A stretch of DNA of 16,955 bases, taken from NCBI GenBank assembly GCA_048939625.1, contig JBHLPH010000033.1, forward strand, positions 1 to 16,955. Direction: 5' to 3'. How positions within the stretch are numbered: the stretch's first letter is position 1; each line of letters begins with the position of its first letter. The DNA comes from Promethearchaeota archaeon (GTDB taxonomy: Archaea > Asgardarchaeota > Hermodarchaeia > Hermodarchaeales > Hermodarchaeaceae). Positions 1 to 16,955 of this stretch are shown here, piece after piece. The position numbers and the translations under genes were made by a program. Below the pieces are notes generated by a model, which made no database searches, was not told the origin of the DNA, and saw only the letters and a program-made list of their open reading frames with translations.

Positions 1-369
1 CAGGGCATCAGCATGGTATGTGATAACCAGAGGAATATGGGTGAGTTGACTGGCTGTAGCTGCGATATCGACAGTCAGGGGTGAGTTGATATGCGCATGG
101 AAAATATCGACTCGATCACGCAGGAGTGCAGGTAACAAACCGGGAAGGACCGGGTAATTGAAAGGGCGAGCGATGGCTCGGAATCTTCGGATTTGGATGC
201 CGTGATAATTTTCAGTGCTAGGTGTGTTTGGGAGTTGCGTTGTGAAGACTTTGACGGTGTGTCCGGCATCGACCAACCCTTTTGCGAGGTTGAAGGCGTA
301 AGTTTCGATGCCCCCGACGACAGGGTGAAAGTCATGGACGACCTGTGTGATGTGTAATGGACGTGGCAC
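1..369 (-). CDS. Glycosyltransferase family 4 (GT-B), N-terminal part; runs off the left edge; absent from the ORF track
   Basis: Manual translation from GTG at 369 is open to base 1: MPRPLHITQVVHDFHPVVGGIETYAFNLAKGLVDAGHTVKVFT...RVDIFHAH...IPLVITYH. It has the GT4 N-terminal motifs P-x-x-GG, GHxV, DIxHAH and PxVxTxH. A G-rich SD-like stretch lies upstream. Confidence 0.9.
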   Translation of the reverse strand, partial: MPRPLHITQVVHDFHPVVGGIETYAFNLAKGLVDAGHTVKVFTTQLPNTPSTENYHGIQIRRFRAIARPFNYPVLPGLLPALLRDRVDIFHAHINSPLTVDIAATASQLTHIPLVITYHADAL

Positions 370-387
370 TCCCTGTCCCCCTTTTTG

Positions 388-891
388 CTAGGGTCCTGTG
401 ACGTTCATGGGGAGATGGACCCATAAGCCGCGACCTAAGGCATCGCGAATCCAGACGATTTCATTGGTGTTGGGATCGTAGTGCCAGAGTTCGAAGGTGA
501 GTCGATAATTGATACCAGGAGTCGTCATGTTGAGGGTAACTGGGAAGCGCCAAGTGCCTCCATTAGCGACAAGCCTTTCGAACTGCTGCAGCGTGGGAGC
601 TGTGGAGGGAGTGGTGGTGGTAGTCATGGTGGTTTCATCGGCGAGTTTCATTCGGACATAGAAGTATTGGACTACGCCCATGTAATTAGAGACTTCGATG
701 TTGAGGGTGATGTTAGTATTAGCGGTGACGTTAGTGGGATAGGGTCCGGCTTGCATGGATTCGTTGAGGAGAGCAATTGAAGGGGTGTACTCAGCCGGGG
801 GGAGTAACCAAACGGAGACGAGAAGGGTTCCGGAGGCGAGGACGATGCCAAACATGAGGATGGTGAGGATCGTTTGTGTATATTTTCTCAT
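388..891 (-). CDS. Membrane-anchored protein resembling the C-terminal extracellular domain of DUF1616
   Basis: One N-terminal TM helix, then Y-x-x-x-IALL...YPTNV, EVSNYMG, YRLTFELW and WVHL segments like the DUF1616 C-terminal beta domain. Five N-x-S/T sequons and a Thr-rich tract. Confidence 0.65.
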   Translation of the reverse strand: MRKYTQTILTILMFGIVLASGTLLVSVWLLPPAEYTPSIALLNESMQAGPYPTNVTANTNITLNIEVSNYMGVVQYFYVRMKLADETTMTTTTTPSTAPTLQQFERLVANGGTWRFPVTLNMTTPGINYRLTFELWHYDPNTNEIVWIRDALGRGLWVHLPMNVTGP

Positions 892-1439
892 GATGTCTCC
901 TCCTGTTCATCGTCGGGGAGCCGAATTTCCATGCGAAGGAATTCTCGTCGACGTTTTTTGCGGTACTGTGCCAACTGCGTCACGACAAAGTAACTGGTAG
1001 GTAACGAAATCAACACCACGGCCACGACAACTACAATGAGTGATTGCGTCTGGGCGTTGGTGGTGAAACCTCGAAGCTGCGCTTCAGTGCTGACCGTTTG
1101 TGCCGTGGTTGCAGCGCCATCCGCCAAGGTGATAGCTGTGGAATAATCGGTCTGATTGTAAGCTTGCCGGGCTTGATTTAACTCAAAAATCGCATCGTTC
1201 AGTGTGCTAATCAAATCAGTGATTTCTGATCCAGCAGCATCAGCGAATGCTAAATTGAGGTAAGCGGTATTGATGTCAGCTTGTGCATCATCAATGGCTT
1301 GTTGAGCTTGATTTTGGGAGGGTTGGGTATACGACAGGCTAGGGTATGAATTAGCATTTTGAAGGGTGCTGCCGATGACGCATAAACTCAGAAAGAGAAA
1401 GGAGAATGTGAATAGCTGAAGAAAGTGCTTGCGTTGCAT
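888..1439 (-). CDS. Hypothetical type I membrane protein
   Basis: N-terminal signal-like hydrophobic stretch, Ala/Gln-rich helical ectodomain, C-terminal TM helix followed by RKKRRR. Its stop overlaps the next start (ATGA coupling). Confidence 0.75.
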   Translation of the reverse strand: MQRKHFLQLFTFSFLFLSLCVIGSTLQNANSYPSLSYTQPSQNQAQQAIDDAQADINTAYLNLAFADAAGSEITDLISTLNDAIFELNQARQAYNQTDYSTAITLADGAATTAQTVSTEAQLRGFTTNAQTQSLIVVVVAVVLISLPTSYFVVTQLAQYRKKRRREFLRMEIRLPDDEQEETS

Positions 1440-1463
1440 AGGCGTCGAAACAATAGGGGACTC

Positions 1464-1480
1464 AAAGGTTAAAAGAATCT
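1464..1480. promoter_or_regulatory. BRE/TATA-like element in a short divergent intergenic region
   Basis: AAAGGTTAAAA on +, AAAGATTCTTTTAA on -. The same 11-mer precedes eL20 (12694-12704, minus). Confidence 0.5.
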
Positions 1481-1511
1481 TTGCTTAATGGTCCGACGGG
1501 ACGGACATCTT

Positions 1512-2135
1512 ATGCTGCTACGTGAAAAGGATACTTATGTTCCTGAAACCGTTCGCGAGTTGATTCTTGATGCATTACGTAGTCGACGGTTCTCAACAGT
1601 ACAAGAAGTCGTCCAAGAATTACAGGGTAAAGGCGTTCCCGAAGACATCACGATGCGGATGATAAGGGATCTGGCGAACGAGGGGAAAGTACTGCTAAAC
1701 CTTCCTGGCGCTCGAGAAGAAACGGTGATGACGCCGGTATCCGGAATCCCCGCATATTTACGAAGTATGTTAGCACTCGATTTGTGGCTAACACTAATTC
1801 TGTTGATCTTGGGTCTCAGTACCACCTTATTGATCCCTGTGGAACTATACCCGTTGGTTATCCTACGCTGGGTTTTCGGTGGTTTATTGTTGGTATTTGT
1901 TCCCGGGTTTGCTTTTATCCGAGCCCTCTTTCCCTTTGAACGATATATCGACCGCTGGGAAAGACTTGCCTTGTCCTGTGGTCTTAGTATAGCACTAGCA
2001 GTATTGGTCGCCTTTGGACTGAACTTTACCCCATGGGGGATTACACTGGTTCCCACCGCAGCAGTGCTTGCAAGTATTAGCATTATCTGCATCTTGATTG
2101 CCACAATACGTCGGGCACGTGTCCTAATTGCCTAA
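1512..2135 (+). CDS. DUF1616-like multi-TM protein with an N-terminal putative winged-helix domain (alternative start 1488)
   Basis: LRWVFGGLLLVFVPGFAFIRALFP and ERLALSCGLSIAL...LNFTPWGI match the DUF1616 membrane region. ATG 1512 fits the TATA-like box at ~1468-1474 better than 1488. Confidence 0.75.
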   Translation: MLLREKDTYVPETVRELILDALRSRRFSTVQEVVQELQGKGVPEDITMRMIRDLANEGKVLLNLPGAREETVMTPVSGIPAYLRSMLALDLWLTLILLILGLSTTLLIPVELYPLVILRWVFGGLLLVFVPGFAFIRALFPFERYIDRWERLALSCGLSIALAVLVAFGLNFTPWGITLVPTAAVLASISIICILIATIRRARVLIA

Positions 2136-2145
2136 ACGTTGGGAC

Positions 2146-3216
2146 TTACAGGATAGGTAGGTTCTTCACGAAACAATGAGGTGCCTTGCAGTTTTTTTCT
2201 ATTCGATATTCAGGGCAGATGAGTGCACCGGGGGGGATTATAGCCCCGGAGTCTATTATCGCTTTATCCCCCACAATCGTGTAAGATTCTAGCCGGATAT
2301 CCTTTCCAATAATAGCGCCTTGACCAACAATTGAATGGTCAATAATTACACCTTGTTCGATGATAACATCATCAAAGATTACAGAGTTAGAGATTCGTGA
2401 ATGGGTTCCAATGGTTACCCGGTTGCCAATGGTGACATCCGGTTCGACTGTTACCTCAGTGGCGATTGTTGTGTCTGAACCGAGATATGGAGTTTTGTGA
2501 AGAGCTGTACGGAGGGCATGATGGGCTTCAAGAAAGGATAGGGGAGTACCTGTGTCAATCCACAGTCCATGATGTTCCCACCCAAAAACTGGTGATTTTT
2601 TACAAAGAAGTGGAAACACATCGTATTCGAGAGAGGCTGTTTGGTTGGGAGAGATGTAATCTAACACTGTGGGCTCGAGTACGTAACATCCCGCATTAAT
2701 CAAGTTGGTTGGAGCGTGGTCTGGATCTGGTTTTTCAATAAACTGGTGGATGCGTCCATTTGAAGCAATATCGACAACACCAAATCGAGTGGGATCTTCA
2801 ACTCTGTAGAGAGCAAGTGTTGCTGTGGCTTGGTGCTCTCGGTGATATTGTAACAGATGATGGAAGGGTAGATCTGAGACGATGTCACCATTCACTACAA
2901 GAAATGGAGCATCATCAGGGAGATAAGATTCAGCGAGTTTAATGGCACCTGCCGTTCCGAGTGGACGCTTTTCAATCGAATAGTGTATAGTGAGATCGTG
3001 TTTAGCACCATCGCTGAGATAGTCTTGGATTGCGGAGCCATTGGAACCGGTTGCAAGAATTATTTCAGTTATCCCCACTTGTTGGAGCTGCTTCAGGATG
3101 TAGCCAACAAGGGTTGAATCAGCTAAGGGAAGGAGTTGTTTGGGGCGACTGCAGGTGAGGGGGCGAAGGCGGATACCATATCCCCCTGCAAGTATCACGG
3201 CAATCATGGAGTGCAT
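2146..3216 (-). CDS. NDP-sugar pyrophosphorylase, probably mannose-1-phosphate guanylyltransferase (GMPP type) with C-terminal left-handed beta-helix
   Basis: ILAGGYGIRLRPLT..RPK, EKRPLGTAG, NGD, FIEKP, INAGCY, SLEYDVFP and WIDTG motifs, plus hexapeptide repeats. The start may be ATG 3207. Confidence 0.85.
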   Translation of the reverse strand: MHSMIAVILAGGYGIRLRPLTCSRPKQLLPLADSTLVGYILKQLQQVGITEIILATGSNGSAIQDYLSDGAKHDLTIHYSIEKRPLGTAGAIKLAESYLPDDAPFLVVNGDIVSDLPFHHLLQYHREHQATATLALYRVEDPTRFGVVDIASNGRIHQFIEKPDPDHAPTNLINAGCYVLEPTVLDYISPNQTASLEYDVFPLLCKKSPVFGWEHHGLWIDTGTPLSFLEAHHALRTALHKTPYLGSDTTIATEVTVEPDVTIGNRVTIGTHSRISNSVIFDDVIIEQGVIIDHSIVGQGAIIGKDIRLESYTIVGDKAIIDSGAIIPPGALICPEYRIEKNCKAPHCFVKNLPIL

Positions 3217-3357
3217 ATCCTGAGTTTTTTTGAGCCATAAGTATTTATGTGGACGTTGAGTCTTCTTTTCTATAGTTGGGGCTGCTTGTGGGTAAGACTT
3301 AAGAACAAAGCCTTATCAAGGCAGTCGCAGATTCCCTACTATAAGGGGTAACCAATT

Positions 3358-3705
3358 ATGGCACGAGATAAAGTCTATGGTTTCCTCATTCTCCTCTTCG
3401 CGATTCTAGTTCTTCTCTATTACACCTATTGGGCTCTCATCTATCCCTTCATGTTTTACAGCGTGTATACAACTATTACTGGTCCACCTGTAACTCATCC
3501 ATGGTGGCCATTCTTTGCCTGGATTCCACAACTGGGCTATGTTCCAGTTCTGTGGGAGCCCTATTGGGCTGTAGCAATTCCGGTGTGGCTGGCGATTGTG
3601 CTCGTACTCTTCATTGTGGCTTGGATTGGTTGGACAATGCTAACAACTCCACCCCCGATTCCCCTTGAAGAAATCGAGGAAGAAGAGGAAGCTAAAGAAG
3701 AGTAA
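3358..3705 (+). CDS. Two-TM small membrane protein, DPM2/PIG-P-like
   Basis: DKVYGF, YYTYWALIYPF, YWAVAIP and MLTTPP resemble recalled DPM2 and PIG-P motifs. Acidic C-terminal tail. SD-like AGGGGT upstream. The CDS is secure; the family call is by eye. Confidence 0.65.
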   Translation: MARDKVYGFLILLFAILVLLYYTYWALIYPFMFYSVYTTITGPPVTHPWWPFFAWIPQLGYVPVLWEPYWAVAIPVWLAIVLVLFIVAWIGWTMLTTPPPIPLEEIEEEEEAKEE

Positions 3706-3727
3706 ACAGCATCCCGTCAACATCGGC

Positions 3728-3762
3728 TGTCTCCCTTTACGGGGGACAACCTTTCTTTTTTT
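3728..3762 (+). terminator. Stem-loop plus T-tract, probable terminator
   Basis: TGTCTCCC-TTTAC-GGGGGACA (8 bp with one G-U) followed by TTTCTTTTTTT, between convergent genes. Confidence 0.6.
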
Positions 3763-12709: not shown

Positions 12710-14117
12710 TTGAATAGAATGTCTTTCAAAGAAGATAGTTATCAACCTCCCTCCCATGAACTGAAAAATATTGGTCACCCTTCTATTCTTGCATGAAACC
12801 AATGCTATTAGCAAGGAAAATCCGCATCACACCTACAGCTGAGCAAGCTAATGTGTTATGGGCGTTATCCGAAAAATGTCGACTTCTCTATAACTTCGCT
12901 CTGGCAGAACGTAGACGCCAGTGGGAAACTAATCGAATTAATCCAGTGTCCAAACGTAACTACATAACATATTTCCAACAACAGAACTTCCTACCGGTCC
13001 TCAAGAAGCTGTATCCTGAATATACCTGGGTTTATTCGAAAGTCTTACAAATGACGTTAAAACGTCTCGATGACGACTACAAATCCTTCTTTGCTCGTTG
13101 GAGCTGTGGTGATAAGCAAGCGCGACCTCCAAGCTTCAAAGGTCAAAACTACTTCACAACACTGTGTTACAATCAATCCGGATTCACTCTAGATATAACC
13201 CATAAAACAATTCGTTTTTCCCACCGCCACCCATCCGGTGTTGAATTAAAATTCGCCTTGCCCTGGCTACCACCTGTTAATGGTCAAGTCAAACAAGTTG
13301 AAATATTCCAGGATAGGCAGTGTCGTTGGTTTGTTTCAATCACCATCGAGTATCTGTATCATGAATCTTCTGATAATGGCCAGTACCAAGCAATTGACCT
13401 GGGCATTATAAATTTGGTAACAGCTGTAAATCACAAAGGGAGATTTATTCAAATCCGCAATCGTCGCCCTGACCTCTATTGGAAAGACCAACTTCGAGAA
13501 GTGCAATCCCGTCGTGATCATTGTTTGAAGTACAGCAACAAATGGCATTTCTACCATAGAAAATTATTGAAAATGCAAAGAAAATTAGCAAATCAATTGC
13601 GTGATTTCCAGCATAAAATTTCCAAAGTAGTAGTAACGAATACTCGTGCTCACACATTGATTATCGGCAATCTCGAGATCAAACAAATGGTACGTAAAAA
13701 AAGGCATTCGAGGACTAGTCGGAAAGATAAGGCTAATAGAACTTTGAATTATTCGATGCAAAGCACGGGTTTTCTAGGGAGATTCGCCCAATTCTTGACC
13801 TACAAAGCTCAGAGATTAGGTAAAAGTGTGATAAGAATTGACGAATCGGATACTACGAAGATGTGTTGTGTATGTGGTAAAATGAAGAGACGCTATTTAT
13901 CAGAGCGTGTTATCCAATGCAATTGTGGAAATCCGTTTGATCGAGACCAAAACGCAGCGGTCAACATCATGATACGGTTTCTATTGCAGAAACCCCCTGT
14001 GAACGGGGAGCCATTACAAGCGTTCTTGAATGGCTTGCATCGACATACAGCCCTACCTCAGAACTTGCAGGTAGTGGATTCGATGGAAATACCTGCATAA
14101 ACGCAGGTGTAGTTCAC
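12710..14117 (+). mobile_element. Non-autonomous tnpB-only IS200/IS605-family element (IS1341-like); left end approximate
   Basis: No tnpA. Antisense to and separating eIF6 and eL20, which are normally adjacent. Subterminal hairpin ACCTGC-ATAAAC-GCAGGT followed by GTAGTTCAC is a typical right end. More AT-rich than the flanks by eye. Confidence 0.75.
12793..14100 (+). CDS. tnpB: RNA-guided endonuclease TnpB (IS200/IS605 type) with rearranged RuvC-II
   Basis: N-terminal OrfB-type helix region, RuvC-I AIDLG (D202), IIGNL in place of xEDL (G292), IDESDTT (E351), zinc finger CCVC...CNC and RuvC-III DRDQNAAVNI (D385). Confidence 0.95.
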   Translation: MKPMLLARKIRITPTAEQANVLWALSEKCRLLYNFALAERRRQWETNRINPVSKRNYITYFQQQNFLPVLKKLYPEYTWVYSKVLQMTLKRLDDDYKSFFARWSCGDKQARPPSFKGQNYFTTLCYNQSGFTLDITHKTIRFSHRHPSGVELKFALPWLPPVNGQVKQVEIFQDRQCRWFVSITIEYLYHESSDNGQYQAIDLGIINLVTAVNHKGRFIQIRNRRPDLYWKDQLREVQSRRDHCLKYSNKWHFYHRKLLKMQRKLANQLRDFQHKISKVVVTNTRAHTLIIGNLEIKQMVRKKRHSRTSRKDKANRTLNYSMQSTGFLGRFAQFLTYKAQRLGKSVIRIDESDTTKMCCVCGKMKRRYLSERVIQCNCGNPFDRDQNAAVNIMIRFLLQKPPVNGEPLQAFLNGLHRHTALPQNLQVVDSMEIPA

Positions 14118-16882: not shown

Positions 16883-16955
16883 TGGTGCGCTGTCCGGGAT
16901 TTGAACCCGGGCACCCAGCGTGGCAGGCTGGAGTCCTAGCCACTAGACCAACAGC
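16883..16955 (-). tRNA. tRNA-Gly(GCC), intronless, CCA encoded; about 2 nt at the 5' end lie beyond the window
   Basis: Reverse complement gives anticodon arm CCAGC-CTGCCAC-GCTGG, T arm CCGGG-TTCAAAT-CCCGG and 3' end ACAGCGC-A-CCA. Confidence 0.97.

Follow-up and report, generated by a model that had tools for sequence, protein, structure and literature searches.

The gene at positions 3358..3705 (+ strand) of the 16,955-nucleotide stretch of DNA analysed here (the window) is a real gene, and its 115-aa product, a two-helix membrane protein (P0001), is a true homologue, established by sequence-profile standards, of the eukaryotic endoplasmic reticulum (ER) subunits DPM2 and PIG-P. This kinship and its evolutionary meaning are already known, and what remains of interest is the archaeal partner of the protein. 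Our best reading is that the hairpin would be part of a split Dol-P-hexose synthase, together with a family 2 glycosyltransferase (GT2) of 229 aa encoded elsewhere in the same genome, and we consider the chances of this to be about evenly balanced. The window comes from a 2.31-Mb MAG, 87.6% complete and 6.3% contaminated, whose nearest named relatives and syntenic contigs belong to the Hermodarchaeia/Hermodarchaeota, that is, to the Asgard archaea.

A sequence-only reading of the window had placed at 3358-3705 an ORF of 115 aa with two TM helices and had quoted four motifs from it. The ORF is present exactly as claimed, with an ATG start and its stop codon within the coordinates, and all four motifs were found: DKVYGF at residues 4-9, YYTYWALIYPF at 21-31, YWAVAIPVW at 69-77, and GWTMLTTPP at 91-99. 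Two hydropathy peaks correspond to one two-TM hairpin. An AlphaFold2 model, based on a 48-sequence alignment of the family, had a mean pLDDT of 81.3, with confident helices at residues 2-34 and 69-95, a loop of low confidence at 35-68, and a short C-terminal helix (103-114) in the acidic tail, which spans residues 104-115. Four parts can be distinguished along the gene, all on the + strand. Residues 1-34 (3358..3459) hold the D4-K5-x-x-G8 motif and TM helix 1 (YYT-x-W...PF) and constitute the DPM2-like half. Residues 35-68 (3460..3561) form an aromatic- and proline-rich loop, presumably extracytoplasmic, whose length differs widely between family members; variant loops were also seen in related contigs. 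Residues 69-95 (3562..3642) make up TM helix 2, with YWAVAIP at its start and WIGWT at its end (W89, I90, G91, T93). Finally, residues 96-115 (3643..3702) carry TTPPP-x-P-L-E-E and the acidic tail, a signature of the archaeal family, and would act as a cytoplasmic docking segment.

In the alignment of 48 members, G8 and G91 were invariant and D4, P75, I86, W89, I90, T93, T96, T97, P98, and P100 were conserved at 90% or more. Because the same residues recur in this way, the motifs are more than chance. The protein bears the complete family signature, namely a M-x-[KR]-D-[KQ]-x-x-G start, WA-x-AIP at the beginning of helix 2, the WIGWT-x-x-TTPPP-x-P end, and the acidic tail. The archaeal family profile recognised it with E values of 9.6e-34 to 1.4e-32, and among the 16,245 six-frame segments of the genome, this ORF was the sole match (E 1.4e-32; next best 3.6). 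Contigs of two wetland metatranscriptome libraries, which are sequences of relatives, covered 3279-3735 at ~96% identity. In one such contig (~96% identical), 9 of the 11 differences inside the ORF fell on third codon positions and the other two in the variable loop. Expression of the ORF is at most weakly hinted by these contigs, since RNA libraries can contain DNA and the contigs stem from ~96% identical relatives; stretches lacking RNA coverage carry no weight.

The sequence-only reading had proposed a check against the Pfam profiles of the two eukaryotic families. The protein scored above the curated cut-off of DPM2 (PF07297; 33.4 bits, E 5.3e-8, cut-off 27.3) and weakly, below the cut-off, with PIG-P (PF08510; 18.5 bits, E 0.0019, cut-off 39.3). 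The DPM2 match was broken into two stretches by the loop 35-68, the best of them aligning residues 4-32 with profile positions 2-30. The PIG-P alignment extended over residues 5-111 (profile 3-85) and thus spanned the segment that follows helix 2. Helix 1 is DPM2-like and the segment after helix 2 PIG-P-like, and the mixture of features first noticed by eye agrees with a family that sits between both eukaryotic ones. In relatives with short loops, the DPM2 match is in one piece and colinear over profile positions 2-71. Some relatives also gave higher scores: the short-loop relative P0053 matched DPM2 at 52 bits (E 8.5e-14) without a gap, residues 4-73 aligning with positions 2-71 of 75, and relative P0045 cleared both cut-offs (PIG-P 39.8 bits, DPM2 32.6 bits). 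Among the 48 diverse family members, 31 matched DPM2 and 34 matched PIG-P. The archaeal family resembles DPM2 and PIG-P about equally, as expected for a descendant of the ancestor that preceded their duplication.

Matches between short hydrophobic proteins call for controls of TM composition bias, and the sequence-only reading had tied its proposal to a profile hit persisting under such control. The DPM2 profile proved specific: the 14 control genomes yielded no match, and in the 2.31-Mb genome of the window this ORF was the only one matched. Across Asgard archaea, 52 of 201 genomes had a match, in each case to one small ORF, with 30 of these ORFs scoring above the cut-off; where both coordinates were listed, they were the ones picked by the archaeal family profile. 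We regard homology as established because the same genomes contain, as natural decoys, thousands of further TM-rich frames, which do not score. We weighed these results against the view that the likeness to DPM2 and PIG-P is due to convergence or to TM composition, the gene encoding an unrelated small membrane protein. It is true that short two-TM proteins yield spurious profile matches. Phage_holin_3_6, a family of two-TM holins, was weakly matched by 24 of the 48 members (best E 2.4e-6), so hairpin profiles cross-react at about that level, and the PIG-P profile, at E up to 1, gave weak matches in 9 of the 14 control genomes. Besides, fold searches were unspecific. However, the clean DPM2 controls with their one ORF per Asgard genome, the colinear full-length matches with equal spacing exemplified by P0053, the scores of up to 52 bits, and an independent published phylogeny that uses the same family (PMC12872463) all speak against convergence, which we consider largely refuted and hardly credible.

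In a representative search (199 hits) and a permissive profile search (120 of 772 matches listed), the matches listed were all archaeal-family-type sequences, a few of the records being labelled bacterial. Among solved structures, neither the single protein nor the family profile had a sequence relative; with Foldseek, the hairpin found no PDB entry below E 5, and an Atlas search by shape lacked specificity, the query being a helical hairpin. A second weak PIG-P match in the genome, on contig C29, was discarded as an unrelated multi-TM protein (−5 bits on the family profile).

The hairpin family is near-universal in Asgard and Thermoproteota and far wider than Asgard. It was present in 174 of 201 sampled Asgard genomes (81 of the 86 high-quality ones), mostly as a single copy, and in 234 of 251 Thermoproteota genomes, often in 2-4 copies; a first scan had matched at least 408 species genomes. 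The suspicion that shorter forms ending in TTPPP occur in TACK archaea under vague names was right, given these Thermoproteota counts and the vague or wrong labels met in the family; source names among the matches listed were "hypothetical protein," "transcriptional regulator," "fatty acid desaturase," and "FliL." A short "KPIEEI" subtype corresponds to Bathyarchaeia.

Two kinds of unusual forms were noticed. Four proteins of 166-185 aa (P0166, P0172, P0173, and P0236) have two tandem hairpins of SYWALA-x-PV...WIGW type, hence four TM helices, and lack the TTPPP tail; by eye, they are rich in alanine, glycine, and arginine. From their sequences, they look like a duplicated, fused form of a related hairpin. 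The rare long forms P0141 (289 aa) and P0221 (163 aa) extend the hairpin by a long linker, acidic or proline-rich, that leads to a C-terminal tail which by eye resembles a helix-hairpin-helix-type domain. They were considered as enzyme fusions and rejected on account of these tails. It may be, and this is speculation, that such tails are the source of the "transcriptional regulator" names.

The link of the archaeal family to DPM2 and PIG-P, which the sequence-only reading implied to be new, is already in print and in databases. A 2025 study in Nature traces "DPM2 and PIGP" to an archaeal origin and to a duplication before LECA, and its supplement lists for PF07297 (whole tree) the origin "Asgard" and one duplication at 2.51 Ga (2.06-2.88), with the LECA nodes DPM2 and PIGP (PMC12872463). 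The shared ancestor suggested by the sequence-only reading agrees with this dated tree. Most close relatives carry the precomputed Pfam labels PF07297 and PF08510, and automatic naming has assigned two ESM Atlas clusters to the DPM2 family; one is commonest in Thorarchaeota, the other in Bathyarchaeota. Both DPM2 and PIG-P are specific to the ER, where they take part in making Dol-P-Man and in initiating GPI anchor synthesis, and their Asgard ancestry adds to the archaeal root of the eukaryotic endomembrane system, a point likewise already published. The point of interest is the task of the hairpin in cells that lack an ER; the family has near-core status in Asgard and Thermoproteota. At stake is whether the eukaryotic design of a catalytic subunit combined with small membrane subunits is an archaeal invention.

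A comparison with DPM2, the regulatory subunit of type-II Dol-P-Man synthase and an accessory subunit of GPI-GnT, revealed both likeness and difference. Both proteins are two-TM hairpins of similar core length. They have in common an N-terminal D-x-x-x-G, YYT-x-W...PF in helix 1, and A-V-A-I-P at the start of helix 2, and the ungapped spacing of the archaeal motifs is presumably that of human DPM2. The parallel extends to the archaeal genome, which also holds a TM-less, DPM1-like GT2. In contrast, the archaeal loop of 35 residues is far longer than in the short-loop relatives that match the 75-position profile ungapped, and the archaeal protein carries the C-terminal TTPPP-x-PLEE acidic tail, whereas DPM2 ends in a short basic stretch. 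A DPM3 profile had no match in the genome, an uninformative result since the control genomes were likewise without any match.

We then considered the genes around the hairpin gene. Most of the window surroundings are typical archaeal core genes (ribosomal L10, L1, L11, and P1, Spt5, FtsY, prefoldin, eIF6, S19e, Rpr2, NIP7, and an RsmB-type methyltransferase). In this otherwise housekeeping stretch, a TnpB/IS605 OrfB-type gene (12793-14100, +) with HTH_OrfB_IS605, OrfB_IS605, and Cas12f1-like TNB domains lies between the prefoldin and eIF6 genes, and the GC content falls to 0.40 there. A tRNA-Gly (GCC) gene (16883-16955, −) runs past the window end.

On the upstream side, the hairpin gene faces a divergent gene (2146..3216, −) for a GMPP-like sugar-1-phosphate nucleotidyltransferase with a hexapeptide C-domain; its best match was mannose-1-phosphate guanylyltransferase, at 260.7 bits, below the cut-off of 440. 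Beyond it lies the edge of a glycosylation cluster (1..2135), composed of an N-terminal fragment of a GT4 (1-369, −), a DUF1616 ORF (388-891, −), a 183-aa ORF without family match (888-1439, −), and a second DUF1616 ORF (1488-2135, +). The two DUF1616 ORFs, which flank the 183-aa ORF, match different parts of the profile, one 151-289 and the other 4-120. The same DUF1616/183-aa ORF arrangement is kept in a syntenic Hermodarchaeota contig (L005), beside GT4 and Polysacc_synt genes, the cluster extending there with the flippase-type Polysacc_synt gene. We take the nucleotidyltransferase gene and the cluster as context only.

Over ~80 loci, the neighbours of the hairpin gene were lineage-specific, with SAH hydrolase in Bathyarchaeia, PGM/PMM and ETF in Thorarchaeota, and the GMPP-like gene in Hermodarchaeia, and no universal neighbour or operon partner was found among them. 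In 10 loci, mostly of Hermodarchaeia type, a GMPP-like gene and the hairpin gene were arranged head to head, and a PGM/PMM-family gene adjoined the hairpin gene in 19 loci, mostly from Thorarchaeota; in Asgardarchaeia, the PGM/PMM-family gene was 2 kb off. This recurrence of sugar-nucleotide activation genes beside the hairpin gene in separate lineages is new here. Because GMPP-like and PGM/PMM-family genes recur in this position, the gene context points toward sugar-nucleotide supply, plausibly of GDP-mannose. In a Lokiarchaeia contig, the hairpin gene lies directly downstream of, and on the same strand as, a Polysacc_deac_1 polysaccharide deacetylase gene (L007:4921-5784, +).

Which glycosyltransferase might such a hairpin serve? 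Only three GT2 matches were found in the genome, one of them marginal and below cut-off. The best, of 229 aa, is encoded on contig C36 (G000:C36, L002:1291-1980, −) and belongs to the polyprenyl-phosphate sugar synthase class. Its closest solved relative is the Dol-P-Man synthase of P. furiosus (5MLZ, E 5e-20), and the alignment is confined to the catalytic domain (query 1-193 against chain 23-222 of 374). Hydrophobic segments are absent from the 229-aa protein and from 119 of its 120 orthologues (221-233 aa, at least 48% identity), which span Hermod-, Thor-, Odin-, Hod-, Jord-, Frey-, and Baldrarchaeia. On these alignments, the genome's closest relative of Dol-P-Man synthase is thus a TM-less GT2 conserved across Asgard, which is also new here. 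NCBIfam placed it with PpgS (its best match, 125.8 bits), AglJ, and dolichyl-phosphate hexose transferase, all below cut-off. The second GT2 (232 aa, contig C71) is of the same class and has one borderline hydrophobic stretch. A PMT_2 GT-C enzyme that could use Dol-P-sugars is encoded in the genome as well. In line with a TM-less catalytic subunit, Lombard proposed that the TM-less Dpm1 is of "proteoarchaeal" origin (PMC4973528).

In the GT2 neighbourhoods, a small membrane gene was not found. The gene of the 229-aa GT2 lies directly downstream of an Elf1-type zinc-ribbon gene (L002:2042-2353, −), near a gene for an RPA-like OB-fold protein; this order is repeated in a Promethearchaeota contig (L092), and the 3' end of the GT2 gene overlaps the convergent gene of a 324-aa membrane protein. 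In Jordarchaeales, the GT2 gene has as neighbours the genes of an AA_kinase and of a DUF92 membrane protein; each of these two families has isoprenoid-phosphate kinases among its members. None of the GT2 orthologues matched the hairpin profile, hence no fusion was seen. A 310-aa GT2 homologue (P0409) was examined as a Rosetta-stone fusion and set aside, as it has an N-terminal extension only, which probably reflects a mis-called start. Prediction of a complex between the 229-aa GT2 and the hairpin, both supplied as alignments, returned a score of 0.00, which carries no weight either way.

Eukaryotic DPM2 and DPM3 support DPM1, and PIG-P, PIG-Y, and DPM2 support PIG-A; the eukaryotic relatives are thus membrane hairpins serving catalytic glycosyltransferases that have no firm anchor themselves. 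DPM1 works with DPM3 and DPM2 (PMC5526996), and an AlphaFold3 model of GPI-GnT placed the peripheral PIGA on the PIGP/PIGY/DPM2 hairpins (PMC12182360). We propose that both termini of the archaeal hairpin point toward the cytoplasm, with the D-K-x-x-G motif meeting the WIGWT-x-x-TTPPP end of helix 2 at the cytoplasmic membrane surface and the acidic P-L-E-E tail extending from there into the cytoplasm. This face could serve as a platform at the membrane on which a peripheral glycosyltransferase without its own anchor is recruited, oriented, or stabilised. The likeliest client would be the 229-aa GT2, which the conserved cytoplasmic face and the acidic tail of the hairpin would dock, and together they would make up a split, eukaryote-type Dol-P-hexose (probably Dol-P-Man) synthase. 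This reading, which we judge might equally well prove right or wrong, is drawn from the roles of the eukaryotic relatives, the TM-less GT2, and the sugar-nucleotide context. That Asgard and TACK archaea already run a split eukaryote-type Dol-P-sugar synthase, in which a TM-less, DPM1-like GT2 is docked via the TTPPP-x-PLEE acidic tail, is a more doubtful proposition that we advance tentatively. If this wider proposition is true, the multi-subunit architecture seen in glycolipid synthases of the ER is older than the eukaryotes, and a later duplication fitted the hairpin to two different enzymes, DPM synthase and GPI-GnT.

Some observations go against the split synthase. The hairpin gene and the 229-aa GT2 gene sit on different contigs, the lineages examined share no operon partner, and mammalian DPM1 is tethered by DPM3, not by DPM2, a point against DPM2-like docking. 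Furthermore, the sugar handled by the nucleotidyltransferase and PGM/PMM neighbours need not be mannose.

Known enzymes offer two comparisons for the split synthase. Mycobacterial PpgS, a TM-less polyprenyl-phosphate sugar synthase, works with a small membrane partner, which belongs to an unrelated GtrA-like family of small membrane proteins. The underlying logic is shared, with a small integral membrane protein helping a soluble GT2 to act on a lipid phosphate, yet the comparison with the archaeal hairpin is an analogy only. Type-III Dol-P-Man synthase (P. furiosus DPMS, 5MLZ) has an equivalent topology, a catalytic GT2 domain plus TM hairpins, whereas the archaeal hairpin is a separate gene. 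Gandini et al. noted that TMH1 and TMH3 of PfDPMS resemble human DPM2 in sequence (PMC5526996); the family profile matched none of the PfDPMS chains at E up to 10.

The type-III enzyme also bears on a different view, according to which the hairpin is a homologue without a dedicated glycosyltransferase and, for instance, forms oligomers that bind dolichyl-phosphate sugars or assist in their flipping, or serves as a general small membrane adaptor. Type-III TM hairpins have been proposed to join in product flipping (PMC12992685), although the same authors expect the TM domains of DPM2/DPM3 to differ from those of type III. The near-universal and mostly single-copy occurrence of the hairpin gene, usually among housekeeping genes and without a conserved operon partner, would suit such a general function, and the eukaryotic role of DPM2 is itself poorly defined (PMC5526996); the archaeal hairpin might help to clarify it. 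Nevertheless, all characterised members of the superfamily are subunits of glycosyltransferase complexes, and the conserved, presumably cytoplasmic tail resembles a docking peptide. We therefore look upon a role without dedicated glycosyltransferase as unlikely, albeit worth keeping in mind.

The hairpin might alternatively serve a glycosyltransferase of another kind. PIG-P (Gpi19), an essential subunit of the GPI-GlcNAc transferase, is like the archaeal protein a two-TM hairpin with a YWAVA-type start of helix 2 and a T/S-rich, proline-containing conserved segment after helix 2 that leads into a cytoplasmic extension. In a PIG-P-like role, the archaeal protein would be one subunit of a GT4 enzyme transferring GlcNAc to an inositol lipid, a precursor of GPI-GnT in archaea. 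The continuation of PIG-P profile similarity through the tail that follows TM2 and the passage of relative P0045 over the PIG-P cut-off are in favour of such a role, and so are a GT4 gene ~3 kb upstream of the hairpin gene in the same cluster and the presence in the genome of myo-inositol-1-phosphate synthase and PIG-L-family deacetylases. Conversely, the 115-aa protein itself reaches 18.5 bits of the 39.3 demanded by PIG-P and scores higher on DPM2. A search for the PIGA domain, which matched one control genome below cut-off, had no match in this 87.6% complete genome. GPI2 (PIG-C) and Gpi1 (PIG-Q) had no match in it either, and since the control genomes had none, this is weak evidence. The only GT4 and PIG-L gene pair found, on contig C70, was tried as a GPI-like module and rejected, as it is of BshA/BshB type and belongs to a soluble thiol pathway (BshA 373.6 bits, above the equivalog cut-off of 273.7). 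Collectively, these data make a GPI-GnT-like role less likely than the split Dol-P-hexose synthase, and we hold it to be decidedly improbable. As to the gene pair on G000:C70, BshA (L174:2998-4104, −) is divergent from the BshB-like, PIG-L-family deacetylase (L174:4219-4893, +); bacillithiol-type biosynthesis genes are unexpected in an Asgard MAG and could stem from gene transfer or from the 6.3% contamination of the assembly.
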